A DNA stretch of 64,000 nt, from assembly GCA_965214835.1 (NCBI GenBank), contig CBDCCK010000002.1, forward strand, positions 2,080,001 to 2,144,000, written 5' to 3'. Both the position numbers and the translations under genes were made by a program. Below the pieces are notes generated by a model, which saw only the letters and a program-made list of their open reading frames with translations, ran no database searches and was not told the DNA's origin. Shown piece after piece: positions 21,483 through 60,700 of the stretch. This stretch comes from Nitrosopumilaceae archaeon (GTDB taxonomy: Archaea; Thermoproteota; Nitrososphaeria; Nitrososphaerales; Nitrosopumilaceae). Every line of letters begins with the position of its first letter. Positions within the stretch are counted from its first letter, which is position 1.

Positions 21483-22850
21483 CAGTAGTTGAAAATGTAC
21501 CCCATAAATCCGTCTAGCCGGGATCATGCCGCCGTCGCCCCACCCCGATCCTGTCGGCATCCGGCGCACGGAGGCAGCACGAATACAGGACCACGGCATA
21601 CATCAGAGTCAGCAGCGCCATGACGCGGGTCTTTGGGTCTCCCGAGTCCCTCATTGTCAGCCATATGTTGCATACTGCAAGCGACATGTAAAACAAAAGC
21701 ACACGCAGGACAGGATTCCTGCTGACGGTCCGCGGCCTGACGCTCTTGGCACAGCGGTATCCGGTCTCTATGCCCCACCTGTTCCGGTACTCTCTTGTCA
21801 CATGGCAGAACAGCTGCCGATAGCTGCAGCAGCGCACCGTGGTCGCAAACACGTGGTATCTGTCAAAGACGTTCTTTGCCTTGGACCTTGGGATCTTCTT
21901 GATGACCAGCGTGAACGTGAACTCTTTGCCGTCTGACGACCTCATGGTATACCTTGATACTGCCTTTCTCTTGCCGCGGGCGCGCTGCACTATGGCCCTC
22001 TTTATCCCCGGTGTCTTGACTGCGGGCATGATGAATGCAAACCCGGGTTCGGATATGGCATCCATTACATCGACCGAAAAGAACCCCCTGTCAAGCAGGA
22101 TGACGCTGCGCCTTGACCCAAGCCTGGGCGTAATGCCCAGATCGGCGCATTTTTTGAGCATATTACGCACCAGATCGGCCTGTTTGTCGCCCTCGGTCAC
22201 CATGCGGCAGGCCGTATGCACGTCGGCGCCGGCCTTGGATGTCAGCTTGCATGTCATGTACTGCTCATAGTTGATGGTGCCCCTGTCGCGCTTTGACTTT
22301 ACCAGGTGCTTTATGTCGGTTTTCTTGTCGTATCTGGGCAGCTTGGTCTCGTCTATGGCAAGGACAGGCGCCTTGTGGCTCCTTTGGAGGGAGCAAAGCT
22401 GCCTGCCCACCGCCTCGGCGGCCGTGTAATGCAGCATTGCATCGCACCTTTTCTCCATCGTGGACAGTCTTGCGTGCCCCAGCTTTGCAAGAAGCCAGGC
22501 CGAGCTGGGCACCGCGGCCCCGGCGCCTTCTGATGCAAGAAGTGCAAGCTTTTGGGCGGTATAGTGCGCACATGCGGAACGCTCCGACATGGATGCAATC
22601 AGGCGGGAGGCGTCTTCCAGGCCCCACATGGCGTTGTGTCTTGAGGAGAACTTGATTTTCAGCATGCCTACTGCGGTAACCAAGAATTTAAATCCGGCCT
22701 CACCGTACCTTGTGTGGTGTTTCTGTTGGGTTTGGTTCATTATCAAGGTAGACAGGAACACCGCTGTTTATAGCTCGATTGGTGAAAAAATCATGTCAAC
22801 TTGTTCAAAACATTCAGACACTTAAAAAGGGGGTACATTTTCAACTACTG
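21483..22850 (-). mobile_element. ISH3-family IS (transposase 21514-22761)
   Basis: TIR CAGTAGTTGAAAATGTACCCC; 5-bp TSD TACAT; AIDET, LLDRGF, YRNRWGIETGYR. Confidence 0.95.
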
Positions 22851-25740: not shown

Positions 25741-25790
25741 CTGTTCAAACACGCGATAAAAACACCCCTGCCGTAATCATGGTGATCGAG
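25741..25790 (+). mobile_element. IS110-family left-end fragment
   Basis: CTGTTCAAACACGCGATAAAAACACCCCTGCCGTA resembles the left ends at 48803 and 59573. Confidence 0.6.
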
Positions 25791-47955: not shown

Positions 47956-48153
47956 CTATCTGTCCTTTTTGTAGCTGTGCTCCCTTTGCAGGTGCGCCCT
48001 CATATCCTCCATGCTTGAGAAGTTTTTGGCACACTCCTTGCAGTCATACGGGCTGTCCTTAAAGTGGACCGCTTGCTTGTGATGCATCAGCTCCTCCTGC
48101 CGTGAGAACCCTGACGCGCACAAGCCACACCGGTGTTTTTTGAAGAGGCCCAT
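47956..48153 (-). CDS. double C2H2 zinc-finger protein
   Basis: Two Cx2C-x12-Hx4H motifs. Confidence 0.85.
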   Translation of the reverse strand: MGLFKKHRCGLCASGFSRQEELMHHKQAVHFKDSPYDCKECAKNFSSMEDMRAHLQREHSYKKDR

Positions 48154-48156
48154 TCC

Positions 48157-48567
48157 CTATCCGTACTTTGCCTTTTGCTCGTCCCAGCACCTTCTGCAGA
48201 GCTGGCCTTCGATCTTCCACTTTGGCTTGGGGTTGTACCGTATCAGCCCCATCTTGCCGCTGCATATTGTGCAAAAGTTCCTTTTCTCGTTGAATCCTGA
48301 CTCTTTTTTATCAAAACACTCCTTGCAGAGTAGCCCATCCATGTCCCACTGCCACCTTGGCTCCCACATGTCTGAGATCTTCTTGGTGGTGCCGCAGACA
48401 ATACAGGGCTGCCTGACCTTGGCCTCGTAGAACTCGTTTGACTTGTCCATGTGGCAGTCCCCGCAGAGCCTTCCATTGATGTTCCACTCCCGCTTGGGCT
48501 TGTGCTTGTGAGTGAGCTCCTTGCTGCATACTGCGCAATATTCCACCTTTTTGCCAAACAGGCCCAT
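48157..48567 (-). CDS. tri-repeat CxxC zinc-binding protein
   Basis: Three CxxC...P..W...G.LCxxC units. Confidence 0.85.
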   Translation of the reverse strand: MGLFGKKVEYCAVCSKELTHKHKPKREWNINGRLCGDCHMDKSNEFYEAKVRQPCIVCGTTKKISDMWEPRWQWDMDGLLCKECFDKKESGFNEKRNFCTICSGKMGLIRYNPKPKWKIEGQLCRRCWDEQKAKYG

Positions 48568-48629
48568 GATATCACTGGCTGGTATTTGATTAAAAATGAT
48601 TCGAGGCAAAAACGGGCGGGATTTGGCGA

Positions 48630-48755
48630 CTAGGATTCGTCAAGAATCTTCTCGATTGCCTGGCTTGCGTTTAGCATGCCGTGCTCCCTTGCAAATTCCT
48701 CGATGATCCTGTACTGCTCGGTTGTAAAGCAGATCGGCATTGAGCGCTTGTCCAT
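48630..48755 (-). CDS. small ribbon-helix-helix-like protein
   Basis: 41 aa: MDKRSMPICFTTEQY..IEEFA...ASQAIE. Confidence 0.65.
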   Translation of the reverse strand: MDKRSMPICFTTEQYRIIEEFAREHGMLNASQAIEKILDES

Positions 48756-48844
48756 GATGGTAGCAGGGGCTGTTATTTAATATGCCTTCCGATGCTCGTA
48801 GCCTGTTGAACACATGATAAAAACGCCCCCGCCGTAGCCAGGGT

Positions 48845-48955
48845 GATGGATCAACCCCTCGTTATGCATGTGCTTCGCGCACTACCTGTTGAATGGGGAT
48901 ATCCGAGCTGCTGTGTTCCTGTGCTACGCGCACTGATGGATGAATGCAGCTTCTG
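48845..48955 (+). ncRNA. predicted bridge RNA (target and donor loops)
   Basis: Two stem/internal-loop modules whose loop strands match the target and circle junction; conserved in three copies. Confidence 0.8.
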
Positions 48956-48995
48956 ATCTGTCAAACCATATCCGAAAGGAGGTGAAAGAAAAGGA

Positions 48996-50073
48996 TTGAG
49001 AAGCATAGGAATAGACATTGGAAAGAGAAAATGCGCAGTGTGCGTCATCGACGCCAAGGGACACGTGCTAGAGGAGGGCTCGTATAACAACACGTACAAG
49101 GAGGCATCAAAGCTTGCTGCACGACTGAAAAAAGAGTACAAAAAGTGCCAGGCCGCGTGCGAGTCAACGGGCAACATGTGGCTAAAGACGTTCAGGGCGT
49201 TTGAGGATCAGCATATCCCCATACTGCTTGCAAACACCCTCAAGATGAAGATAGTATCAGAGACCAGCGCAAAGACCGACCCGATAGACGCAAGGAAGAT
49301 AGCCGACACGCTCAGGGCCGGAATGATACCACGATGCTACGTGGCATCAGCAGAGCTGAGGGATGTCAGGGAGCTGATGAGGTACAGGATACGGATGGTA
49401 CAGGAGAGGACCGCAGTCATAAACGGGCTGCACAGCTTGGCTTGACAAGTACGACATAGCCATAGATGCATCCACGATGTACTCCAAGAAGGCCATACGG
49501 AAGATCTCCGATACCAGGCTGAACATGCCAAACGATGACAGGATACTGGCAAGCTGCACTAGGAGGATTGCATCAGTTACAGAGGAGATAGACCAAGCAG
49601 GGGAGGACATAGGAAGACAGGCAGGATCGAACGAGGATGCCAAGCTGCTGTTGAGCATGACGGGAATAGACACCTTTGCAGCAATGCTGCTGATAGCAGA
49701 GATCGGCGACATAACCAGATTTCCATCGCCGAACCAGCTTGTGTCCTGGGCCGGCATGTGTCCCCGGGTGTACCAGTCGGGGGATCGCGAGTACTACGGC
49801 CACATGAAAAAGGATGCAAACCGCAGGATCAACTGGCTGATGATCCAGATAGTCAACGTCGCCGTACAGCACGACGACAGGATGAAAGAGTTCTACGAGA
49901 GGGTCCGCAAAAGGAACGGCAACAACCACGTCATAGCGATAACGCATGTTGCAAACAAGATGCTCAGGATAATCTGGCACATGCTGACGACAAAGACTGC
50001 GTATTCATCGCGCAATGCTGTCCTGTACGACAAGAAGATCAAGAGGGTGACAGAACTGGCGGGAACGGCATAG
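48996..50073 (+). pseudogene. IS110 recombinase, one frameshift near 49440
   Basis: GIDIGK, ESTG, KTDPIDA; C-terminal G.CP...QSG. Confidence 0.92.
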
Positions 50074-50254
50074 GATTACCACCTTCCTCCCCCACCCACC
50101 CACCCAATGATCCGCCCGCACCCTGGCAGGTGCGACAGGACTGGCTCGTGCGTATTGCTAGCGTTAGCTATAAAGCACGGCCCGGCCGACTAGGCACGGA
50201 TCAGAAGACGAAAGGAACGTCGCCATGTTACTGGCGGGCGTTTTACCATGGATG

Positions 50255-50640
50255 CATAACTCTGCCTAAAATTTGAAACTTGACCAAAAATCACCCAAAT
50301 TATCAACGGATCCTGACCGAAAAAGTAATGGAATATGAGGATGCCACGTATGGTACTTGACACACACGGACAATGCCAAGTACGGAGGGGGGTAGGCCTA
50401 GTAGTCAAGTACGATCCAGGCTGGGAGAATGATCTCAAGAATGCCAACTGCCACAAGGAGGGTGCCCCGTTCCTGTACGCAGATGGCATGATAATGGTCG
50501 CGGCGGCCCTCAGAACCGCATTCATGATGCCGTACAGGCAGCTGTCAGGCATGATCAGGGAAATGCTAAGGGGCATGGACTCGTCGTGCTATGCCACGAT
50601 ATTTGGGAGGATGCAAAAGCTTGACGTCGACATTGCATAG
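50255..50640 (+). mobile_element. IS903-like remnant whose left TIR is interrupted by IS110 copy 1
   Basis: VRRG...W...KEG.PF.Y...PYRQ..G; GCCTGT-TG-CATAAC reconstitutes the TIR. Confidence 0.8.
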
Positions 50641-50719
50641 TCAACACATAAAAAAAACGGATTGTTTTGACAACTATTTTTGATCCAAAGATCTAAGACT
50701 AGGGGAGCCATACATATGT

Positions 50720-51095
50720 GCATCAAAGCGCAAGCAGAACGAGTTCAAGGAGGCAGCGCAAAAGCTGATCAGGGAAAATACGGCACAAGGGTATACGGTA
50801 CTGGCAGAAGACGAGTCCTCCGTGCAGAAGACCTCGAACAGCCCCAAGCGTGGGTGGACAAAGCGCGGCATGAGCGTCACGGTGCCCTCGTCCCTGTCAC
50901 GGCCGCGCCGGTACATGTTTGGCGTACTGTCAGCTAGTAGACTTTATGCGTAATCGGTTCAGATCTAGGATTATTAGGAACAAATTCATCTCATTCAGGT
51001 CGATTACGCATAAAGTCTAGTGTATTCTACTTTATGTTCTATGACAAGACCAGCACCGACAGCTTTTGCGACTTTTTTGGCAAATGCACACAAGG
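50720..51095 (+). mobile_element. IS630-family remnant
   Basis: AEDES...GW...G...MFGVLS|..FYF.FYDK. Confidence 0.7.
50939..51018. mobile_element. 80-bp MITE of the ISL2-like family
   Basis: TIR AGACTTTATGCGTAATCG/CGATTACGCATAAAGTCT; TSD AGT. Confidence 0.9.
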
Positions 51096-51097
51096 TC

Positions 51098-51148
51098 TGA
51101 TCTACAAGCTTGGCGGTCATTTTACAGGAAGTTTTTTTGGATAGCCCC
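51098..51148 (-). mobile_element. IS5-type left-end fragment
   Basis: Reverse match to 11651-11700. Confidence 0.7.
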
Positions 51149-51228
51149 GGCTGATTTCTGGAAAAATTCCGGATAATGCAAGCTATACTTTTCTGACTGC
51201 AAAGATTTTACGTGGGCAGATCCCAGTC

Positions 51229-51741
51229 ATGCACATGAAAAAGCGCCAGATTGTAGTCATCGGGCACAACGACAACGGCTGTACGCCCGAGCACGAGAGG
51301 ATTGCATATGATACCGGTGTCGAGGTTGCAAAATCCGGCTCGGTCCTAGTTACCGGAGGCCTGGGAGGAGTGATGCGCGCCTCCTGCCATGGTGCATCTG
51401 ATGCAGGGGGCATAACCGTGGGCATACTGCCCCAGGATGATCCCGGCTTTGCCAACGAGTACTGCCAGATTGTAATACCAAGCGGCATGGGGCTGACCCG
51501 GGACTTTCTCAACGCGCTTTCGGCAGACGGCATCATAATCATCGGCGGCGGCTCTGGAACCCTCTCTGAGGTGTGTGCCGCGTACATGCACAAAAAGCCG
51601 ATGGTCGCAATCAGAAACACCGGCGGAACCGCCGACAGGTATGCTGACAGCTATGTCGATCACCGGCAGAATGTGAAGATCATAGGTGTGAGTACGCCAA
51701 AGGAGGCAGTGGAAAAAATCCTGGAACTGATCACTTCATAG
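51229..51741 (+). CDS. TIGR00725/LOG-like Rossmann protein
   Basis: TGGLGGVM, GILP, GGGSGTLSE. Confidence 0.9.
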   Translation: MHMKKRQIVVIGHNDNGCTPEHERIAYDTGVEVAKSGSVLVTGGLGGVMRASCHGASDAGGITVGILPQDDPGFANEYCQIVIPSGMGLTRDFLNALSADGIIIIGGGSGTLSEVCAAYMHKKPMVAIRNTGGTADRYADSYVDHRQNVKIIGVSTPKEAVEKILELITS

Positions 51742-52867
51742 ACTCTAGTAGCGGATCCGGCCTGTAGAACTCGCCGCCTTCCTGTGCAAGCCTGTCCAGC
51801 TCTGCAACGATTCTGCCCATCCCGATCTCCCTTGCCGTCTCAAACAGCGGCCTCTTGAGGCCCAGCCCCAGCCTTGCGGCCATTTCGAGCTCCTCAATGT
51901 CGCTTGCCTTGTTTGTGACCAGCCATGCTGCATTGTTGAGAACATTTGCCACCAGCGGGATGGGGTCGAACTTTCCTGCCAGCTCCTCTGAGAGCCCCAC
52001 CCTCTCATACTTGTCATCAGAGTACCTGTAGAACCCCTCGCCTGATTTCTGGCCCAGCCTCCCATCTTCGAACATCTTCCCGATTGTAGGATGCGGCAGG
52101 ACAACCTTCTTGTCCCTGAGATGCATCTCGGTAGTCGCCTTGTGGATGACGTCCATGCCGGTAAAGTCTGCCAGCTCAAAAACCCCCATCGGGAACCCCA
52201 TCTTGAACTTTACCGCAGAGTCAATCTCCTCCAGGGAGGCGCCCGTCCTGTCCATTGCATAGCATGCCTCGTGGACCATGGGGATAAACAGCCTGTTGAT
52301 TATGAATCCGGGAACGTCCCGCCTGCACAGGACTCCTTGCTTCCCTACGGACTCTACGTACTCCCTTGTCAGCCTGAGCGTCTCCTGGGAGGTCTTTTGG
52401 CCCGGGATGATCTCGACTAGCTTCATCAACTGCGGAGGATTGAAAAAGTGGATTCCGATGAATTTGTCCGGGCGCGAGATCGACTCTGCAATCTCGGTAA
52501 TCGGCAGCGTGCTTGTGTTTGATGCAAAGATCACCCCTTCATCGGATGCCTCGTCTAGCTCCGCATAGACCTTTTTTTTCAGATCCATGATTTCAGGAAC
52601 CACCTCGATTACCATCTCTGTGTCCCTGACTGCCTCCTTGAGATCCACGACCGGCGTTATTCTTCCAAATATTGCGTCTGCCTCGTCCTTTGGGATTTTT
52701 TCCTTTGAGACCATCTTGTCTAGGCTCCACCTGATCTTCTCCATCGCCTTATCCAGGAACTCCTGCCGGATGTCCCGCAGTACCACGTCGTATCCTGCAG
52801 CAGCTGAGACCTGCGCTATTCCGTGTCCCATGACCCCCGAGCCTAGAACCGTGATGCTCTTTACCAT
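51731..52867 (-). CDS. 3-hydroxyacyl-CoA dehydrogenase (likely 3-hydroxybutyryl-CoA, 3HP/4HB cycle)
   Basis: GSGVMG, SNTS, HFFNPP...LVE, GFIINR. Confidence 0.93.
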   Translation of the reverse strand: MVKSITVLGSGVMGHGIAQVSAAAGYDVVLRDIRQEFLDKAMEKIRWSLDKMVSKEKIPKDEADAIFGRITPVVDLKEAVRDTEMVIEVVPEIMDLKKKVYAELDEASDEGVIFASNTSTLPITEIAESISRPDKFIGIHFFNPPQLMKLVEIIPGQKTSQETLRLTREYVESVGKQGVLCRRDVPGFIINRLFIPMVHEACYAMDRTGASLEEIDSAVKFKMGFPMGVFELADFTGMDVIHKATTEMHLRDKKVVLPHPTIGKMFEDGRLGQKSGEGFYRYSDDKYERVGLSEELAGKFDPIPLVANVLNNAAWLVTNKASDIEELEMAARLGLGLKRPLFETAREIGMGRIVAELDRLAQEGGEFYRPDPLLESMK

Positions 52868-53163
52868 AAGTGAGGGATCCTGCCATCCCTTATTATCCTA
52901 TTTGACCGGCGATCCTTGACGTGTTGTCTGAAAACCATGTTCGTTAGTAACTGATGTCCGTCTACATACATTTTGGATCACTTTTTCTGACTGCTTTTGT
53001 GAACAGGCTAGGACACTAGACCTTATGCGTAATCGGTTAAAATCAAAAAAGTCAGGCAGCTTTTACGTCATTTTTGACAAATACACAAAGTATGATGGTA
53101 TCAGAAGGCGGTTGATCCGTTTGCATTCTTGCCAGTTTGACCCAGCTAGGATGCATTTTGCTT

Positions 53164-53255
53164 GTACGAGGCCACCTCTCATTGAGCAAATAGGCGTGAA
53201 TTCGCATGCTGCTGTGATTTTCATGCCTAGCCAGCAATGGGACGTGACCACGTAT
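53164..53255. mobile_element. IS66-like MITE family A
   Basis: GTACGAGGCCAC...GGGACGTGACCACGTAT; TSD not preserved. Confidence 0.75.
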
Positions 53256-53336
53256 GCTGTCCCGTCCGGTTCCTATCCTATAAGCAACCACGTTTAATCC
53301 GCATGGTTTTTAACGGATTTTCAAGCCTAGCTTGGC

Positions 53337-53501
53337 ATGGGGCTGTTTGGACGCAAAAAGGACGACAAGAATACAAAGTGCAAGGAATGTGGGCTGGATC
53401 TGCCCACCCCCGAAAGGCTTGAAAGGCACATGAAAAAGGCACACGGAAACATTCCTGAGAAAAAGTTTGATCCAAACCGTGCCGGGGATGGTACCTGGTA
53501 A
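53337..53501 (+). CDS. small C2H2 zinc-finger protein
   Basis: 54 aa with CKECG...LERHMKKAH; stop overlaps the next ATG. Confidence 0.75.
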   Translation: MGLFGRKKDDKNTKCKECGLDLPTPERLERHMKKAHGNIPEKKFDPNRAGDGTW

Positions 53502-53779
53502 TGGATGAGCTAAGCGACGGGAAAAAACACACCCTGATCTTCGGGGGCGCCCTGGTCATTGCGGGCCTAGTTATAGCAACCGTGGTGTTTCCCTTCTGGA
53601 ACCTGATACGCGAGGATGTCTTTGAGGAGGCCGAGATTCTAAAAAACGACGGGGGGATCTGCTATGTGGAGACCTCCGACAAGATCCCAAAGACCATTGA
53701 GGACTGTACCCACATGCCCGGAGACATCGTGGTGGTAAAATACGGCCGGGGACTCGCATGGGCGACCATCGAGCCCTGA
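53501..53779 (+). CDS. membrane-anchored hypothetical protein
   Basis: TM helix plus a small beta domain. Confidence 0.75.
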   Translation: MDELSDGKKHTLIFGGALVIAGLVIATVVFPFWNLIREDVFEEAEILKNDGGICYVETSDKIPKTIEDCTHMPGDIVVVKYGRGLAWATIEP

Positions 53780-53811
53780 ATGCTTAATACCGGACGGCCC
53801 GATCCACCGTC

Positions 53812-54219
53812 ATGGACTGCATATTTTGCAGGATTGCAGGCGGCAAGATTCCTGCAAGGATACTGTACGAATCCAACAGCGTTATGGCGTTTTTGGACGC
53901 GTTTCCACTGGCAAGGGGGCACTCCCTTGTAATTCCCAGGCGGCATTTTGAGAGGATCCAGGACATGCCTCCTGATGTAAGCTCTGCAGTCTTTGAAGTC
54001 GTCCGCAGGTTGGCATCCGGGGTTGATGCCGTTGCCGGCTCCACGCTGGTCGCTGTCCATAACGGACGGGGAAGCGGCCAGGAGGTTCCTCACGTCCACG
54101 TACACCTGATTCCCAGGGGACCTGATGATGGTGCAGGCACGGTGCACACCATGTTCAAAAACAGCGTCGAGCTAGATGACTCTGACCTTGCCTGCATCCA
54201 GGATGCCCTGAGGCTCTAG
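53812..54219 (+). CDS. HIT-family hydrolase
   Basis: CIFC, GH.LVIP, HVHVHLIP. Confidence 0.95.
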   Translation: MDCIFCRIAGGKIPARILYESNSVMAFLDAFPLARGHSLVIPRRHFERIQDMPPDVSSAVFEVVRRLASGVDAVAGSTLVAVHNGRGSGQEVPHVHVHLIPRGPDDGAGTVHTMFKNSVELDDSDLACIQDALRL

Positions 54220-54881
54220 TGCGGGTATAGACGTTCCCTGGTGTCGCTGTTTTTGACGTTTATGGCTCTGGTCGGGCATGTCTCTGCTGCATTCATGATC
54301 TTGTTGATGCCCGCGCCCCGTCTGTTGATTACCCTGGATTTCGGGTTGGTTTGGGACTTTTTATCGATGTGAAAGACCTCTGGCGCGATGATCTCGCAGC
54401 TGCAGCACCCTATGCACAGGCTGGGATCCACGTCCACCAGCAGATCCGGCTGCTCCTTGGGCTCCTTTGTCTTGTCAAACTCCCCGTTTTGCCCGTCTGC
54501 ATTTACGGTCCTGTCGTACTCATCCCAGAACTTTCTTTCGTATTCTTTCCACCACTCGGGGTCTCCCTCCTCGAACCCCCGTGTGAACTTGCCCCAGTCC
54601 TGCTCCGGGGGATCCCCTCTTGGCGGTGCACCCCACGGTGACTGCGGCTTTGGCCTCCGGCGCGTCTTTTCTGTAGCGGTCGCCTTTTTTCCATTTTTAT
54701 GAAAGTCCTTTAGGACGTTGTAGGCCTCGGTGACCCTCTTGAACTTCATGCCGTCCTTTGACTCCTTGTTTTTATCCGGATGTGACTCTAGGGCCAGCCT
54801 CCTGTATGCGTCTCTGATTTCATCTAGGGTCGCGTCGCTTTGCAGCTGCAACGTCTGGTATGCCTGACTCGTGTTCACCAC
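54216..54881 (-). CDS. DnaJ-domain/ferredoxin fusion
   Basis: HPD motif; CIGCCSC...CP. Confidence 0.92.
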   Translation of the reverse strand: MVNTSQAYQTLQLQSDATLDEIRDAYRRLALESHPDKNKESKDGMKFKRVTEAYNVLKDFHKNGKKATATEKTRRRPKPQSPWGAPPRGDPPEQDWGKFTRGFEEGDPEWWKEYERKFWDEYDRTVNADGQNGEFDKTKEPKEQPDLLVDVDPSLCIGCCSCEIIAPEVFHIDKKSQTNPKSRVINRRGAGINKIMNAAETCPTRAINVKNSDTRERLYPH

Positions 54882-55208
54882 CTTTCCAGTCTTCTTACTG
54901 TTTTAAAAACAATGTCTATTCTACGACCTCCTTGCCCTCGACTATCCACGCCAGCTTGACTATGCATAGAAGCCTTGTCTCTGGCCACCGTAAGGCACAC
55001 AAGGCGGCACCTAGTGCCTTCTATCCTACCGTTCTTGCCGTCATGTAGGACTCGGCCGTGCTGGTGCCCGGCCTCCTGTGTCATACCTTGTGGGTCATCT
55101 TCGGTAAGAGCTTGCACGCTCCAAAAGACACAGCGTGATGGGCAGGTGATCAAGGGTTTTGTCTTGGCATCAAAAACTATTGGGCTGCTCACCTCCATAG
55201 ATCTAGCT

Positions 55209-55299
55209 GTACGAGGTCACCTACCCCACAAATCAGGCACGAATTGGCATGTACAATTGTGATTTCCATGCCTAGCCAGCAAGGGACGTGACCACATAC
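55209..55299. mobile_element. IS66-like MITE family A
   Basis: TIR GTACGAGGTCAC/GTGACCACATAC; 8-bp TSD ATCTAGCT. Confidence 0.9.
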
Positions 55300-55476
55300 A
55301 TCTAGCTGATCAGAAAAACCACACAACATCAGATCCTCAACTCTCTAGGCGTAAAACATTCATCCAAATTTCCTGTTCACGCCTGATTTTACGGATGATC
55401 TGACGTTGTACAATCATTATAAGATACTAGCCTTCTGCGTCCTCAAACCCCCCAATACCGCCTATTGACAGCCTTT

Positions 55477-55935
55477 TCATTTTATGATGCCTGTCGCTCT
55501 GCCCTTGAAGTCAGACTCATACCATGTCGTCTTGTACTCTGCGTTTTTTCTAGGCGGGATGTTGACTGCAATGTGCGCAAAGGTCTTCCGGGTGCTCGTA
55601 GAGCCATGCGTGTGCAGCTGCCTTGCGGGGATGTATGCTGTGTCTCCTTTTTTTAGCGAGATTTTCTGCGTCCTTTTGATGCCAAAGCTGTCATTTTTAC
55701 CCCCATGCCTTTTGAACAGCTCCAGGCTACCTGGGCCCTCTGTTACAATGAGAACTTGGCCACCGTTGTGCCAGTGAAGCTTGGTCCTTGAACCCTTTTC
55801 AAAGTAAACGTGGTACATCTTATGCTCGGTGATTTTCAGCGCCTCTCCGATATCCCTCATGCGTGTCTTTGCAGTAAACCAGTCCGGATTGATTCTTCTC
55901 TGACTTCCTCCTGCGTAAATATTGATTTTGTCCAT
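55477..55935 (-). CDS. cupin-domain protein
   Basis: HWH..GQ.L.V..G, GD...IP....HTHG. Confidence 0.9.
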   Translation of the reverse strand: MDKINIYAGGSQRRINPDWFTAKTRMRDIGEALKITEHKMYHVYFEKGSRTKLHWHNGGQVLIVTEGPGSLELFKRHGGKNDSFGIKRTQKISLKKGDTAYIPARQLHTHGSTSTRKTFAHIAVNIPPRKNAEYKTTWYESDFKGRATGIIK

Positions 55936-55987
55936 AATCTAAGCACATGCATGTATGTGATATACTTAGCTATATACTCGGTTTTCC

Positions 55988-57439
55988 CATCTATGTTAAA
56001 ACGCCCGGGCCCTTTAGCGGTGGCAAGCTGTGTCTCTCTGATCCACGCCTAGTTTGATATGGGCCGCCTTATGGCTTACGCTGGGTACAGGGGTCTGTTC
56101 CCCGTGTGGGAATGGTGCGCATTACTTTGCTGTCTTCTTCCCAGCCTCGGATGGCGGCTCGGATGCTGCTGCAGTAGTAACAGCGGCAGTAGCAGCAGCC
56201 TCTGCCCTGTCCATCTTGAGGCCGTACGTCCTGGGATCGTGTCCGGAGTATGGCGTCTTTGTCACGAGCATGGACCAGATGATCCTGATCATCTTGGTTG
56301 CCACGTACGTCCTGGCCACCATGGACCTTGCGCTGCTCCTCTTCTTGGATCCTGCATGGATCCTTCCCATCCTCTCGTCGTATATGGCAGCCGTCCGCGC
56401 AGCCTGAAGCATCGCCCGGTTGCACCTGTGGTTGGATGTCTTTCTCATCTTGCCGCAGTACTCCCTGTCGCCGGACTGGTGGACGGTCGGACACATGCCG
56501 AACCACGCAACAAGCTTGCCCGGGGTCTTGAATCTGCCAGTATCTCCGATCTCGGAGACCAGCAGCATGGCCGCGAGTCGATCCCCGGAATGCTCATCGG
56601 GATCCTCGCATCCTCGCTGGCGCCGGCCTGTGCGGCTATCTTCGTCTCGATGTCTGCAATCTCCTCCGTGGGCTGCCTGACCCTTCTGGTATGCGCGCCA
56701 AGAACCGCCCCGTCGTTGGGATCATCAGGTGCCATGTCTGTCAGCTGCCTGAGTCCCTTGTCGGAGTACGCGTGTGACGAGTCGATCCTCTCGTAATACC
56801 TGTCCGGGAGGCCGTGGATCCGGTTGATCACGGCCGTCCTAGCCTGCACGGGGCCGATCCTGCAGCGCATCAGCTCCATGACGCTCCAGAGTCCGGGCGG
56901 TGCCACGTAGCACTTGGGAACCATTCCGGCCCTCAGGGCGTTTGTGAGCCTTCTTGCGTCGATTGGATCAGTCTTTACGTCAATGTCCGAGATTATCCGC
57001 ATCCTGTAGGTGTTGGCAAGCTTGACGGGTATTCCTGCGGACTAGAATGCCTCGTAGGTCTTGAGCCACATGTTGCCTGCGGACTCGCAGACGGCCTGGC
57101 AGTTCCTTCCGTAATTGAGCCTTGTCTTCCTGGCAAACAGGCCCGCCCTCCTTGGAGGTGTTCTCGTATGCCGTCTCTTCTTGGATCCTCTTTTTGTCGT
57201 CCATAATGCACGCTATGCGTTTTCTCTTTCCAATGTCTATTCCTATGCTGCATTACATCTTTTCTCGTCTTCCTTTTTTTGTGGTTCAGAGGCTGCACAC
57301 GTCCATCAGCACGCCGTGGTGCACGAACACTGCAGCTCGGAATTACCGCATTCAGAAGTCAGCGCGCGGGGTGCATGGGAAGACAGCGGTTGATCCACGT
57401 CACCACTGCTACGGGCCCGGGCGTTTTAACCCGTGTTCA
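55988..57439 (-). mobile_element. IS110-family element, copy 2 (multiply frameshifted recombinase ~56122-57253)
   Basis: GIDIGK, ES.G, KTDPIDA, QSG; subterminal IR TTAAAACGCCCGGGCCC; TG core. Confidence 0.9.
57288..57397 (-). ncRNA. predicted bridge RNA of IS110 copy 2
   Basis: Same two-module layout; target-loop strands GTCTTCCCA and ACTTCTG match its own flanks. Confidence 0.7.
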
Positions 57440-58051
57440 AAAGTTCCCCACAAGACGGCTGCAAACTCGAAACGGTTCAAGCAAGGCTGCCTACAGATCC
57501 GCACACATCCATCTGCACCGCCACGAGTCAGTTACTTCTGGGAGGACTGTAGCTTGGTCTGATCAACGCATCTGCGTTTGGAAAACCTTGCGGAATTTTT
57601 AACCACGGTCGATTACGCAAAGTCTACTTTTCACTTAGCTGACTATAGCGTAGCACGCAGCACGGCTATGCCAGCTCCCACCATTAGGACATCCACGGCA
57701 CTTTCCATCATTTTGTCTACTGTGACTTGATTTAAGGTGTAACTCTTGCCGTTTTTCTGTTGTATGATCAAACGAAAGCGGTTCCGGAATTGGTGGGATC
57801 ATGCGACAGGCAAGCACGTACTAGACTTTTGCAGATGTAATTCGTGCCTAAAATCGTAAATCACCCAAGCCCGATCTGCTGCTGATGTGTGATACCACGC
57901 CTCCTTGGTAGCCATGCATGAAAATCAGTTCCATGCAGCTCGTACCTGGTTGCTAGGTGGAATGAGGCCTAGTGCATTTTGGTTAGGAAATTTAGCATTT
58001 TGTCTAAACAAGCAAAGCTGATCCCTATAAGATCACTTTTCACTTAAAACT

Positions 58052-58225
58052 ATGTCCTTCCAAGAACGGCAGCAGATGAGGAGTATAGACGAGCTAATCC
58101 TCCGGGCCACCCCAGAGGAACTCAAGAAAATCCAGGAGCTAGACGTCTCTACCCAGCTTGACGGCAGGTCGTTTTATGATACGTGTGTAGAGTCAAGGGA
58201 ATCCCCACTTGCCAGATCCAAATAG
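58052..58225 (+). CDS. 57-aa hypothetical protein
   Basis: ...ATPEELKKIQELD..TQLDG.SFYD...; below the ORF-track cutoff. Confidence 0.6.
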   Translation: MSFQERQQMRSIDELILRATPEELKKIQELDVSTQLDGRSFYDTCVESRESPLARSK

Positions 58226-58265
58226 CCATTCTTAGTTTAAATGAGGGAATTTCAGCTTCTTGCAT

Positions 58266-59327
58266 ATGTCTGCCACAAAGGCCGTCAAAAAGACTGCCAA
58301 AAAGACGGCAAAAGGCACCGCCAAAAAGACGGCTTCAAAAAGAGTATCCAAGAAGACCAGAGTCGTCTGCATCTCCCACAAGGAGGATGCAGACGGAATC
58401 AGCTCAGCGGCGCTGATCCGCCAGGCGTTTGGTGGCGACTCTATCCTAGTTGACTATCCGGGACAGATGGATGCCATAGAGCAGGTATCTGGAGATGAGA
58501 GGCTAAAGGCACTGTACATCTGTGATCTGGGCCTCAGCAAAAAGAACCAGGACAGGTTCGTCGAGATCATGGCCGGACTTCGCAAGAGGCGCGTTGCAGT
58601 CACATACATTGACCACCATGACATTGATCCTGCAATCGCCAAGCAGCTAGGTGAGATCAAGGTCAGGATGATCCACGACACCGGCGAGTGCACCGCAGTT
58701 CAGGTGTACGACTCGTACAAGTCAAAGCTGAACGAGCACGCCTCGTTTGTTGCAGCCTGTGCCGCAATTACCGACTACATGGAGGACAGGCCAGTTGGCG
58801 CTAGGTTGCTGCAGGTATATGACAGGCAGTTTGCCTTGATCAACGCCACCGTCCTCACATACAACATCGTGGGGCATCAAAAGGACGAGGACTATCTGAT
58901 GTACCTGGTGGGGGAGCTGGCCGACTCTAAATACCCGCACCAGATTCCAAACTCCTTTGAGTTTGCACAAGTCCAGGTGGAGAGACTGGCAGAGGTCATC
59001 GCCAAGGTCAAAAAGGGGATGAAGAGGATGTCGAACCTGGGCCACATGGAGATTCTGGATGCCGGGGCAAGTGGCGCCGTAAACTTTGTGCTCGGCCTGT
59101 CCGGCAAGGACGTCGGGGTCGCCTACAAGGAAAGGGTTGATCACGGAATCTATGCCGTCTCTGTGCGCGGCTCCAAAGGCTGCAGGATCCACCTTGGAAA
59201 GATCGTCAATGTCCTGGCTGCCGATCTGGGTGGCTCCGGCGGCGGCCACGACAGGGCCTGCGGCGCAGTCATCCCAAAGCCCAAAATCAAGACATTCCTG
59301 AGGGAGTTTAACAAAAAGCTGGGATAG
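58266..59327 (+). CDS. DHH/DHHA1 phosphoesterase (RecJ-like)
   Basis: H..DADG, DHH, SVR, GGGH. Confidence 0.92.
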   Translation: MSATKAVKKTAKKTAKGTAKKTASKRVSKKTRVVCISHKEDADGISSAALIRQAFGGDSILVDYPGQMDAIEQVSGDERLKALYICDLGLSKKNQDRFVEIMAGLRKRRVAVTYIDHHDIDPAIAKQLGEIKVRMIHDTGECTAVQVYDSYKSKLNEHASFVAACAAITDYMEDRPVGARLLQVYDRQFALINATVLTYNIVGHQKDEDYLMYLVGELADSKYPHQIPNSFEFAQVQVERLAEVIAKVKKGMKRMSNLGHMEILDAGASGAVNFVLGLSGKDVGVAYKERVDHGIYAVSVRGSKGCRIHLGKIVNVLAADLGGSGGGHDRACGAVIPKPKIKTFLREFNKKLG

Positions 59328-59396
59328 GTGCACTTAATCTGGGGCGCTTTTTTGTTCGGGACTGCAACTGACGCATCGTATGGGGTTTATGCCCTT

Positions 59397-59495
59397 GGAC
59401 AGGCATGCGCTAACCTGCGTGCAAATGTAATCATATTTGGGATTAAAAGTGGGATCAGAGGAATTGCAGGACAGGCATGCGCTAACCTGCGTGCA
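59397..59495. repeat. 27-bp direct repeat, two copies, 72-bp period
   Basis: GGACAGGCATGCGCTAACCTGCGTGCA at 59397 and 59469. Confidence 0.9.
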
Positions 59496-59570
59496 GCTGC
59501 AATCTTTATGTCTGGTCAGTAGGGATGTGGCCTCATACTTGGATAGGCTCTTACCTACAGGCCACGAATA

Positions 59571-60016
59571 GTCTGTTGAGTACATGATAAAAACACCCCA
59601 CTGTAGTCAGGGTGCTGGATCAGCCCCCACCATGCACGTGCTTCGCGCACTATCTGTTGAATGGGGCAGTCAGAGCTGCTGTGTTACTGTGCTTTACGTA
59701 CTGGTAGATGACTGCAGCTTTTGGTACATCAAGACTAGGCGGAAAGAAACCGTCTGCGATGACTCGCCTCCTGTCCCACCACCCATCCAATGATCTGGGA
59801 GGATATGACATGACCGCACTGGGACAAGGCAGGTGCTATTGCATCGTGCAGCCAGCTAGCTGTAAAGTGGGTCACGATCAAGTAGGCATGGATCAGAGGA
59901 AACTAGGAGCATCGTCGTTTCTGCGATGGGTGTTTTTAACATAGATGCATAACCATGATTTTAGGCACAAAAGATCAGTCACCTTTGCGTGTTCAGGCAC
60001 GGCTATGCAACAAGCG
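59571..60016. mobile_element. IS903-like MITE hosting the IS110 mini-element
   Basis: GTCTGT-TG-CATAACC ... GGCTATGCAACAAGC. Confidence 0.7.
59577..59947 (+). mobile_element. non-autonomous IS110 derivative (left and right ends only), copy 3
   Basis: Colinear with both non-coding ends of copy 1, no recombinase ORF; TG cores and subterminal IRs. Confidence 0.88.
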
Positions 60017-60142
60017 TAAGGTGCGAGATCATGCCTCCACTATGAATCGATAAACGTTGATGCCTGTACCTGTAAGCGCACGTACGATATTCCGGTATGC
60101 ATACCTGCCAATACGGATATACAAGTAGGCGGGTCGGACGAC

Positions 60143-60700
60143 ATGACGGTTCGGCCGCAGGTACCAGTAGAGCCCCCGACTCCGGTTCTGCAGCCTGAGC
60201 CCGAGCCGGAACCAGAACCTGAACCCGAGCCACAGGTGCCTGTCGAGCCCCAGACCTCGGTACAACCGGATCCTAGGCCCCATGCCGCCTCGGAACCGGG
60301 AGGCACATGCCTGATAGCGACTGCCGCATACGGGATCAAGCTGGCGCCGCAGGTGCAGGCACTCGGAGATACGCGACAGTGCACTGCTCTCGACGGGCTC
60401 GGGCGCCTCCTTTGTTGCTGGATTCAACTCCATATACTATTCGTTCTCGTCGGCAGTAGCCGGCCTGGAGAGCCAGAACCCGGCATTTCGCGAGGCCGTA
60501 AGGGTGCTTGTGACCTCAATGATATCGACGCTGTCGATAATGTCGCTTGCTGAGGAGGGCTCAGATGCATCGGTACTGGCGCTGGGAGCCTCAGTTTGCC
60601 CTCAATATCGGCATGTGTGTAGCAGTGCCTGCAGCCGCCATCGTGGCTGTCCGGCGGCTGCGGGACTAAAGTCTGCCGATCACCGAACGGTATGGGTGCA
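60143..60700 (+). pseudogene. surface-protein C-terminal remnant (PE-rich linker, CFI-box-CTERM-like)
   Basis: PEPEPE..GGTCLIATAAYG..LAPQVQ followed by frameshifts. Confidence 0.8.

Follow-up and report, generated by a model that had tools for sequence, protein, structure and literature searches.

A decayed IS110-family element and its relatives in a Nitrosopumilaceae archaeon: predicted guide RNAs matched to the termini of other transposons

The window analysed here is a stretch of 64,000 nucleotides from the genome of a Nitrosopumilaceae archaeon (contig CBDCCK010000002.1, positions 2,080,001 to 2,144,000), and its minus strand carries a decayed insertion sequence (IS) of the IS110 family, referred to as copy 2 and assigned to subtype D. 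Copy 2 is very probably a dead member of an archaeal IS110-family clade in which a bridge (seek) RNA, encoded by the left end of the element, serves to choose where it inserts. The sequence anatomy of the element, the concordance of its guide strands with the flanking DNA, the covariation of the stems, the protein family and the uninterrupted targets were all observed. Mechanisms of this kind have been established for IS621, ISEc11 and ISEc21 (PMC11208160; PMC11208158; the accessible part of PMC11187229). The features of the window discussed below are listed in Table 1.

Table 1. Positions of copy 2, its predicted RNA, its insertion site and related elements in the window
Feature	Position	Strand	Details
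Copy 2, IS110-family element, subtype D, decayed	55988..57439	-	1450 nt plus shared TG core at each junction
Host ~117-bp MITE (miniature inverted-repeat transposable element)	57438..57547 (+ 55981-55987)	-	copy 2 sits 7 nt inside one terminal repeat
Left target half ACTTT (family consensus ACTTC)	57440..57444	-	core TG at 57439-57438
Right target half GGAAAAC (family consensus GGAAGAC)	55981..55987	-	last 7 nt of the terminal repeat of the host MITE
Left subterminal inverted repeat GTTAAAACGCCCGGGCCC	57413..57430	-	7 nt inside the end; 18 nt, 100% complementary to 55995-56012
Right subterminal inverted repeat	55995..56012	-	18-nt perfect partner of 57413-57430, 7 nt inside the end
Transposase pseudogene, DEDD/RuvC-like and Tnp domains	56122..57249	-	frameshifts near 57106 and 56576; in-frame TAG at 57044-57042
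Predicted bridge/seek RNA: target-binding module, then donor-binding module	57290..57400	-	covariance model R1, 135.6 bits over 57284-57437; compensatory changes
Target-loop closing stem, 5' arm CCGC	57386..57389	-	pairs with GCGG 57349-57346; alignment columns 49-52 with 89-92
Target loop, 5' strand GTCTTCCCA	57376..57384	-	complements top strand of core and right target (right target guide, RTG, or 'T' segment)
Target loop, 3' strand ACTTCTG	57353..57359	-	identical to top strand of left target and core; pairs with bottom strand (left target guide, LTG, or 'B' segment)
Donor loop, 5' strand AGTGTTC	57325..57331	-	complements left end GAACAC
Donor loop, 3' strand GATGGACG	57300..57307	-	5/8 to right end CATAGATG; sister copies carry GATAGATG
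Copy 1, subtype A	48807..50254	+	guides GTTATGCA 48861-48868 and ACCTGTTG 48884-48891; flanks CCTGT-TG / CATAAC
Third left end, 371-bp transposase-less miniature element	59577..59947	+	left-end RNA modules and a diverged right end (...TTTTTAACATAGATG)

Copy 2 and its insertion site

The boundaries of copy 2 were set by homology to C2:2665843-2667293, which is 94% identical, and from other ends. Read on the minus strand, the element proper extends from 57437 to 55988 with TG at both junctions, in the order ...GGGGAACTTT-TG / AACACGGGTTAAAACGCCCGGGCCC ... GGGCCCGGGCGTTTTAACATAGA-TG / GGAAAAC.... The left junction consists of AACTTT-TG (57445-57438) followed by the element start AACACGGG at 57437, and the right junction of the element end ...ACATAGATG at 55988 followed by GGAAAAC (55987-55981).

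The host of copy 2 is a MITE of ~117 bp with the terminal repeats CAGTCTTCCCAGAAGTAAC.../...GTTACTTCTGGGAAGACTG, the other terminal repeat of the host copy being ACTTCTGGGAGGAC (plus strand) at 57534-57547. In the 3.2 Mb genome the uninterrupted target ACTTCTGGGAAGAC is found in 57 exact copies, 106 copies at up to one mismatch and 172 at up to two, against a chance expectation, by our own arithmetic, of about 0.02 exact copies. The ~117-bp MITE has these sites as the tips of its terminal inverted repeats, and 43 pairs of inverted sites lie 110-120 bp apart. Occupied sites have TG at both junctions and uninterrupted sites a single TG, indicating insertion at a TG core without further duplication.

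The recombinase gene of copy 2 is a pseudogene, the breaks in its reading frame having been located against an intact relative. Its fragments retain PF02371 (56.3 bits), while PF01548 scores 19.4 bits, under the cut-off of 29. The assignment to the IS110 family is clear from the intact relative, a subtype-B protein of 378 amino acids (aa) encoded at C2:513383-514516, the one intact gene of the clade in the genome; it contains PF01548 (DEDD_Tnp_IS110, 103.9 bits) and PF02371 (Transposase_20, 85.8 bits) and matches NF033542, 'IS110 family RNA-guided transposase', at 234 bits (cut-off 140). In copy 1 both domains are present, spread over two open reading frames (ORFs).

Among the contigs of four sequencing runs compared over window positions 48000-60500, none spans copy 2 and none shows an empty allele. 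These contigs enter the right end of copy 2 from the unique flank by only ~25 nt (to 56013), and loose contig ends at 57441 resemble other copies of the MITE. A search of plasmid records with copy 2 DNA gave no match.

Guide strands and the predicted RNA

The two strands of the target loop correspond to the two halves of the target. In copy 2 GTCTTCCCA agrees at 8/9 positions with the reverse complement of TG+GGAAAAC, and ACTTCTG at 6/7 with ACTTT+TG; the fit of the subtype-D guides to the consensus target is 9/9 and 7/7, the lower values in copy 2 arising because the host terminal repeat has diverged slightly from the consensus. Within the 1450-nt element these strands are the sole matches to both flanks with at most one mismatch. 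Paired flank matches in that arrangement, 15-40 nt apart, appeared in none of 2000 dinucleotide shuffles, whereas the 9-mer match on its own appeared in 64, and a chance origin of the paired matches is excluded on that count.

In an alignment of 15 left ends, GTCTTCCCA and ACTTCTG share columns with GTTATGCA and ACCTGTTG of copy 1. The closing stem of the target loop is CCCC/GGGG in copy 1 and CCGC/GCGG in subtype D, a change from C-G to G-C at columns 51-90 in all three aligned D copies. The initial annotation of this region had described the target, the loop strands and their 8/9 and 6/7 matches correctly on the minus strand, and the same alignment bears out both its placing of the strands at positions equivalent to those in copy 1 and its compensatory change in the closing stem.

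RNAalifold, run on the 15 left ends, independently returned two successive units of outer stem, internal loop and inner hairpin, with the same helices as a structure of 21 pairs drawn by hand. With the hand-drawn structure on this alignment, 96.2% of cells pair and four pairs are changed on both sides, all four of which set subtype D apart from the rest. The covariance model R1, built from the left-end alignment, has matches just upstream of a recombinase gene in five other genomes of the order (6/61 genomes, including the present one). Judged by eye, the 3' loop strand in these other genomes fits the left flank in 8/8 loci with a left boundary, and the 5' loop strand fits the right flank in 4/7. 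An alignment fitted to the model and including the relatives from other genomes, which is biased towards the covariance model by construction, shows changes on both sides in 11/21 pairs, with 95.8% of cells pairing compared with 79.6% in shuffles and 23-49% when the partners are slid. By these computational measures, the non-coding left end contains two internal-loop modules.

The structured left end lies directly upstream of the gene, and structured leaders that inhibit translation have been described for ISPpu9 (accessible part of PMC12288879). The structure might accordingly be nothing but a regulatory 5' leader of the recombinase messenger RNA, serving in translation control or as an antisense target. 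We regard this as very improbable, since it leaves unexplained both the complementarity to the flanks and the retention of the two modules by miniature elements that have no transposase. The roles of leader and guide are mutually compatible. Antisense transcription of the left end was rejected by reasoning only, as the loop strands would then pair with the top strand on the left and with the bottom strand on the right, the reverse of the known chemistry.

The donor loop is organised in the same way as the target loop. Its 5' strand, CTGTGTTC / CAGTGTTC, complements the left end GAACAC, and its 3' strand tracks the right end: subtypes A and B show GATGGATG with CATGGATG, two D copies and several miniature elements show GATAGATG with CATAGATG, and a relative genome shows GATAGGTG with CATAGGTG. 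Across the clade, therefore, the donor strands agree with the element's own two ends and co-vary with the right end. These pairs bear on a further explanation, more improbable again than the leader, according to which the left-end segments are captured target DNA, scars of earlier recombination without guide function. Rearrangement could in principle produce what the two halves show, the left target copied directly and the right target copied in inverted form. However, the split and inverted layout round a conserved hairpin is found in every subtype and in five other genomes, the segments lie in helices maintained by compensatory changes, and the donor loop follows the same logic with its three co-varying combinations.

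Two further observations concern the left end. A second complementarity is present between the sequence just 3' of the donor module, CTTCTGATCTGT (48950-48961), and the inner right end, ACGGATCAGAAG (50196-50207); it is also found in copy 2 and in the miniature elements, and subtype D changes in step (CTCTGATCCAC / GTGGATCAGAG). The left subterminal repeat contains the TATA-like motifs ATAAAAA / TTAAAA at window positions 48818-48824 (copy 1) and 57428-57423 (copy 2), and the target module's first stem follows ~25-30 nt downstream, a spacing that would suit an archaeal promoter for the predicted RNA.

Guide classes and their targets

Subtype A, to which copy 1 belongs, comprises 8 full-length copies that are ~98% identical among themselves, and subtype B has 3 copies. 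The A target CCTGT-TG-CATAAC (A-type site CCTGTTGCATAAC) occurs 4 times exactly and 30 times at up to one mismatch, and is the terminus of several IS families. The B target GTAGT-TG-AAAATGAA, with 24 sites at up to one mismatch, forms both ends of a 1350-bp IS, and the E target GAGGT-TG-TCGCGTAA has 17 sites at the same threshold. Each predicted set of uninterrupted targets is the terminus of a repeated element. Judging from their sequences, the scaffold is common to copy 1 and the other subtypes and the guides differ, apparently aimed at the termini of other resident transposons. One such 1350-bp IS lies in the window at ~21485-22848, with an ORF at 21514-22761 (minus strand, 415 aa), and both of its terminal repeats CAGTAGTTGAAAATGTACCCC are unoccupied B targets.

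The agreement between guides and flanks extends to all subtypes. Of the 28 left ends examined, 26 retain a 3' loop strand of their own; in these, 106/130 non-core positions equal the left flank, compared with 66.4 in shuffles (0/20000 as high), and collapsing identical pairs gives 66 compared with 44.8 (0/20000). On the right side, 17 elements combine a 5' loop strand with a right end that was recognised; 75/119 positions agree in them, compared with 51.0 in shuffles (16/20000), or 39 compared with 24.2 after identical pairs are collapsed (250/20000). The intact B copy, missed by the right-end pattern, has the right flank AAAATGC, which is 6/7 to its own guide. The target-loop strands thus match the flanking target both in copy 2 and genome-wide.

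Differences between subtypes are concentrated in the guides. The target-guide positions of subtype A and the intact B copy differ at 9/15 and all other positions at 3/131 (p=1.5e-8), and the corresponding values for copies 1 and 2 are 10/15 and 37/135 (p=0.003). The initial annotation had interpreted the latter pair as a natural reprogramming. Guides and target do differ together, in support of RNA-programmed targeting, but at 65% DNA identity copies 1 and 2 belong to separate IS species and do not represent the recent retargeting of a single IS. Clearer cases of retargeting are A versus B and the miniature elements.

The least probable of the alternatives is that the recombinase or the subterminal repeats choose the target by reading DNA directly, the identity of loops and flanks being a coincidence or by-product: targets that are transposon termini could be recognised by proteins too, 2/8 D right ends mismatch the guides and the guide RNA is a prediction from sequence, but there are four or more guide classes, each fitting a distinct repeated target at the same pair of alignment positions, A and B differ in guides and targets on near-identical scaffolds with recombinases that are 80-89% identical, and the shuffles rule out chance for copy 2.

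Subtype D across the genome

DNA and covariance-model searches found about 30 left ends of the IS family genome-wide. Subtype D is represented by 2 full-length copies, beyond which there are 3 left-end fragments and 6 right ends. Its five left flanks read ACTTCTG (three times), ACTTTTG (copy 2) and ACTCCTG, the last two each having one mismatch in the five non-core bases. The three exact flanks share nothing past ~8 nt and are therefore independent sites. Among the eight right flanks, GGAAGAC occurs five times and GGAAAAC once (copy 2), and two are unrelated. The flanks ACTTCTG and GGAAGAC that had been predicted for other D copies were hence found at most ends, with 3/5 exact and 2/5 at one mismatch on the left and 5/8 exact on the right.

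A separate observation was made at C2:1751731-1751869 (minus strand), where a D left end is cut exactly after its own 3' loop strand ACTTCTG and is joined to GAAAGACTG, which resembles the tip of the host MITE. This single case is the product expected if guide-encoding DNA had served as the left target half in an aberrant excision.

Proposed mechanism and points against it

From the features described above, we infer that the left-end RNA is made, bound by the recombinase and directs recombination. The RNA would hold two modules, in each of which an internal loop separates an outer stem from an inner hairpin. For subtype D, the target set by the guides GTCTTCCCA / ACTTCTG would be ACTTC-TG-GGAAGAC, which forms the tip of the ~117-bp MITE's terminal inverted repeat, and the strands of the second loop would apply the same reading to the left and right ends of the element itself. 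The DEDD/serine recombinase would then exchange strands at the shared TG core, leaving one TG per junction and no other duplication.

Several observations weigh against this interpretation. Two of the eight subtype-D right flanks are unrelated to the guides, GTTACAC at C2:1849678 and ATGTTGT at the full copy C2:2665843-2667293. The occurrence of the same guides beside unrelated sequence is what the initial annotation had named as contrary evidence; it is limited to these two right ends, and the remaining ends fit. At C2:2665843-2667293, the only other full-length D copy, the right flank is unique and the left flank is ~10-12 nt of target beside another IS, so that the locus represents either an off-target or half-site insertion or a later rearrangement. 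Half-site off-target insertion has been described for IS621 (10.64898/2026.08.31.748434, accessible part), and IS-mediated rearrangement could be an alternative source of unrelated D flanks.

In several elements the flanks are closer to the guides of another subtype than to those of the element, as in the miniature copy C2:655676, which has a B-type left flank, and in C2:639982 and C2:1519227 (a B copy), which have E-type-like right flanks. Trans action of the RNAs on shared ends, or recombination between copies, would be expected to give such cross-class flanks. The donor loop of copy 2 also fits incompletely: as had been stated initially, GTGTTC is kept along with GAACAC and the other strand is poor, at 5/8. 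Copy 2 and one sister copy carry GATGGAC(G/A) as the donor 3' strand, and 2/4 of the subtype-D copies that keep this region have GATAGATG, which fits at 7/8; the poor fit of copy 2 is therefore decay or variation of that copy.

As to the RNA structure, covariation within the genome amounts to about one event per pair. Folding of single sequences produces the two-module shape with energies no better than those of shuffles (z = 0.19, -1.34, 0.87), and the structure therefore rests on covariation. An Rfam scan of window positions 48000-58000 found no family at E<=1.

Finally, both full-length D copies have broken recombinase genes, and dN/dS (the ratio of nonsynonymous to synonymous substitution rates) for this pair is 0.90 and 0.67. 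A recombinase gene of D type that is intact was not found in the genome. With broken genes and neutral evolution, subtype D therefore looks extinct. It probably no longer moves by itself, and any activity would be past or would depend on recombinase supplied in trans.

Recombinase genes of subtypes A and B

The transposase gene of copy 1 is split by a 1-nt insertion. This single-base insertion is common to 8/8 A copies and 2/3 B copies and divides the gene after the RuvC-like domain. In copy 1, at window positions 49430-49480, the sequence is AGCTTGGCTTGAC versus AGCCT-GCTTGAC, and the resulting ORFs encode 149 aa (RuvC domain) and 198 aa. Between two insertion-bearing lineages dN/dS is 0.31 and 0.26 for the two halves; gene conversion is a possible alternative background to these values. 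The split A/B gene may still be functional, either as a split enzyme or through frameshift expression. No slippery motif for a programmed +1 frameshift could be recognised by eye at the shared insertion.

Miniature elements

The miniature element at 59577-59947 is inserted at TAGTCTGTTG/CATAACC, and its own 3' loop strand TCTGTTG is 7/7 to the left flank TCTGTTG. Genome-wide, 4 complete and 4 partial transposase-less elements of ~370 bp were found, and seven miniature copies have seven different guide pairs. No description of guide-bearing MITEs was found in the accessible parts of the literature on bridge RNA carried by MITEs.

MITEPpu9 of ISPpu9 is likewise a miniature element derived from an IS110-family element; it lacks a transposase and relies on the recombinase of its parent (PMC12288879, accessible part). 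According to the same portion of that source, it carries the small RNA Ssr9, whereas the miniature elements described here carry a predicted bridge RNA, each with its own guide pair.

Comparison with known IS110 and IS1111 systems

A sequence search of the PDB returned distant matches only, to ISCro4 (E 4e-9) and IS621 (E 9e-9, C-terminal part only). Among annotated genes, the closest relatives are haloarchaeal 'IS110 family transposase' genes with 31-35% identity.

The IS1111 elements with seekRNA, namely ISEc11, ISKpn4, ISPa11 and ISPst6 (PMC11187229, as far as accessible), resemble the present elements in their DEDD recombinase, in their subterminal inverted repeats, in the position of the top-strand match 5' of the bottom-strand match and in having their own target for each IS or subtype. 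Subterminal repeats, 7-17 bp in the IS1111 group (PMC11208160), are here perfect over 18 nt and lie 7 nt from each end. Unlike in those IS1111 elements, where the accessible text of PMC11187229 places the guide region downstream of the gene, the guide modules are located upstream, and there is a second, downstream non-coding region of ~180 nt in which no match to R1 was found. The archaeal host and the TG core are further differences. Exceptions with an upstream region or with regions on both sides are named in the same part of that paper, which does not analyse their RNAs: ISMtsp17, and ISHvo10 and ISAcp5, where both sides have long regions.

The bridge RNAs of IS621 and ISEc21 (PMC11208160; PMC11208158) are similarly encoded in the left end, upstream of the gene as is usual for the narrow IS110 group, with the target loop before the donor loop. 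In each loop, too, guides are combined with an outer stem and an inner stem-loop, the bottom strand being paired by the left guide and the top strand by the right one. IS621, however, carries its left guides 5' in each loop (LTG A50-U58, RTG G77-G80). This order of the narrow IS110 group, with the bottom-strand guide 5' and the top-strand guide 3', is reversed here in both loops. IS621 also has a CT core and subterminal repeats of 2-3 bp, in place of the TG core and 18-nt repeats found here, and in the narrow group such repeats are absent or 2-3 bp long. In these features the clade mixes IS110 and IS1111 traits.

RNA-programmed targeting, natural covariation of guide and target and one natural case of redirection are already published (PMC11208160; PMC11187229, the latter in its accessible part). 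In that case, the 'natural redirection' of ISMch6 versus ISEc21, altered guide bases are likewise matched by an altered target; as given in the accessible text of PMC11187229, it involves three changed bases in a single copy, whereas several guide classes, many copies and uninterrupted targets are available here. The mechanism is not new, as the principle was published in 2024 and natural concordance of guide and target was the basis of the discovery of bridge RNA.

The present elements share insertion at a fixed position in the terminal repeat of another transposon with certain IS1111-type elements. The latter are reportedly bacterial and plasmid-borne, with one target family.

A possible guide library

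The elements of this genome could together form a 'guide library' on one scaffold, combined with miniature guides supplied in trans, an IS110/IS1111 intermediate and a split or frameshifted recombinase; as a joint reading this is tentative and rather doubtful. It would comprise at least five to six variants of the target loop on full-length, frameshifted and miniature elements, each aimed at the terminal repeats of a different transposon family. The E and F specificities, present only on miniature or fragmentary copies, would be trans guide modules for the single intact recombinase. The IS1111-type order of the guides, the long subterminal repeats and the left-end RNA may together represent an undescribed intermediate between IS110 and IS1111. 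The recombinase of the most abundant subtype may be a split or frameshift-expressed enzyme, given the shared insertion and the purifying selection on both halves.

The value added by these elements lies in a series of guide variants within one genome, in miniature elements that carry guides and in the unusual mix of IS110 and IS1111 traits. A single archaeal genome provides a compact natural data set of guide variants on a near-identical scaffold, occupied sites and dozens of uninterrupted targets, which can be used to define the programmable loop positions in an IS1111-like left-end scaffold. The compact archaeal recombinase (378 aa) is a candidate for testing. The elements are also an example of a transposon parasitising the termini of other transposons.

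Remnants and nested repeats

A left-end remnant of ~40 nt, AACACGCGATAAAAACACCCCTGCCGTAATCATGGTGAT, was detected at window positions 25748-25787 by the covariance model (34.2 bits). At C2:685680-685842 and C2:504069-504227, left ends of different subtypes are broken right after the donor 3' strand GAT(A/G)GATG, and both breaks are made by GTACGAG..., the terminus of another abundant repeat, which may reflect a site-specific event. The small-subunit rRNA of the genome has its best match in the archaeal model (1452.6 bits), which makes the host an archaeon. At 3.2 Mb the genome is about double the size of five sampled genomes of the same family (1.5-1.7 Mb) and is crowded with nested IS and MITE copies. 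It contains 30 matches to the RNA model, compared with at most 5 in any other genome searched.

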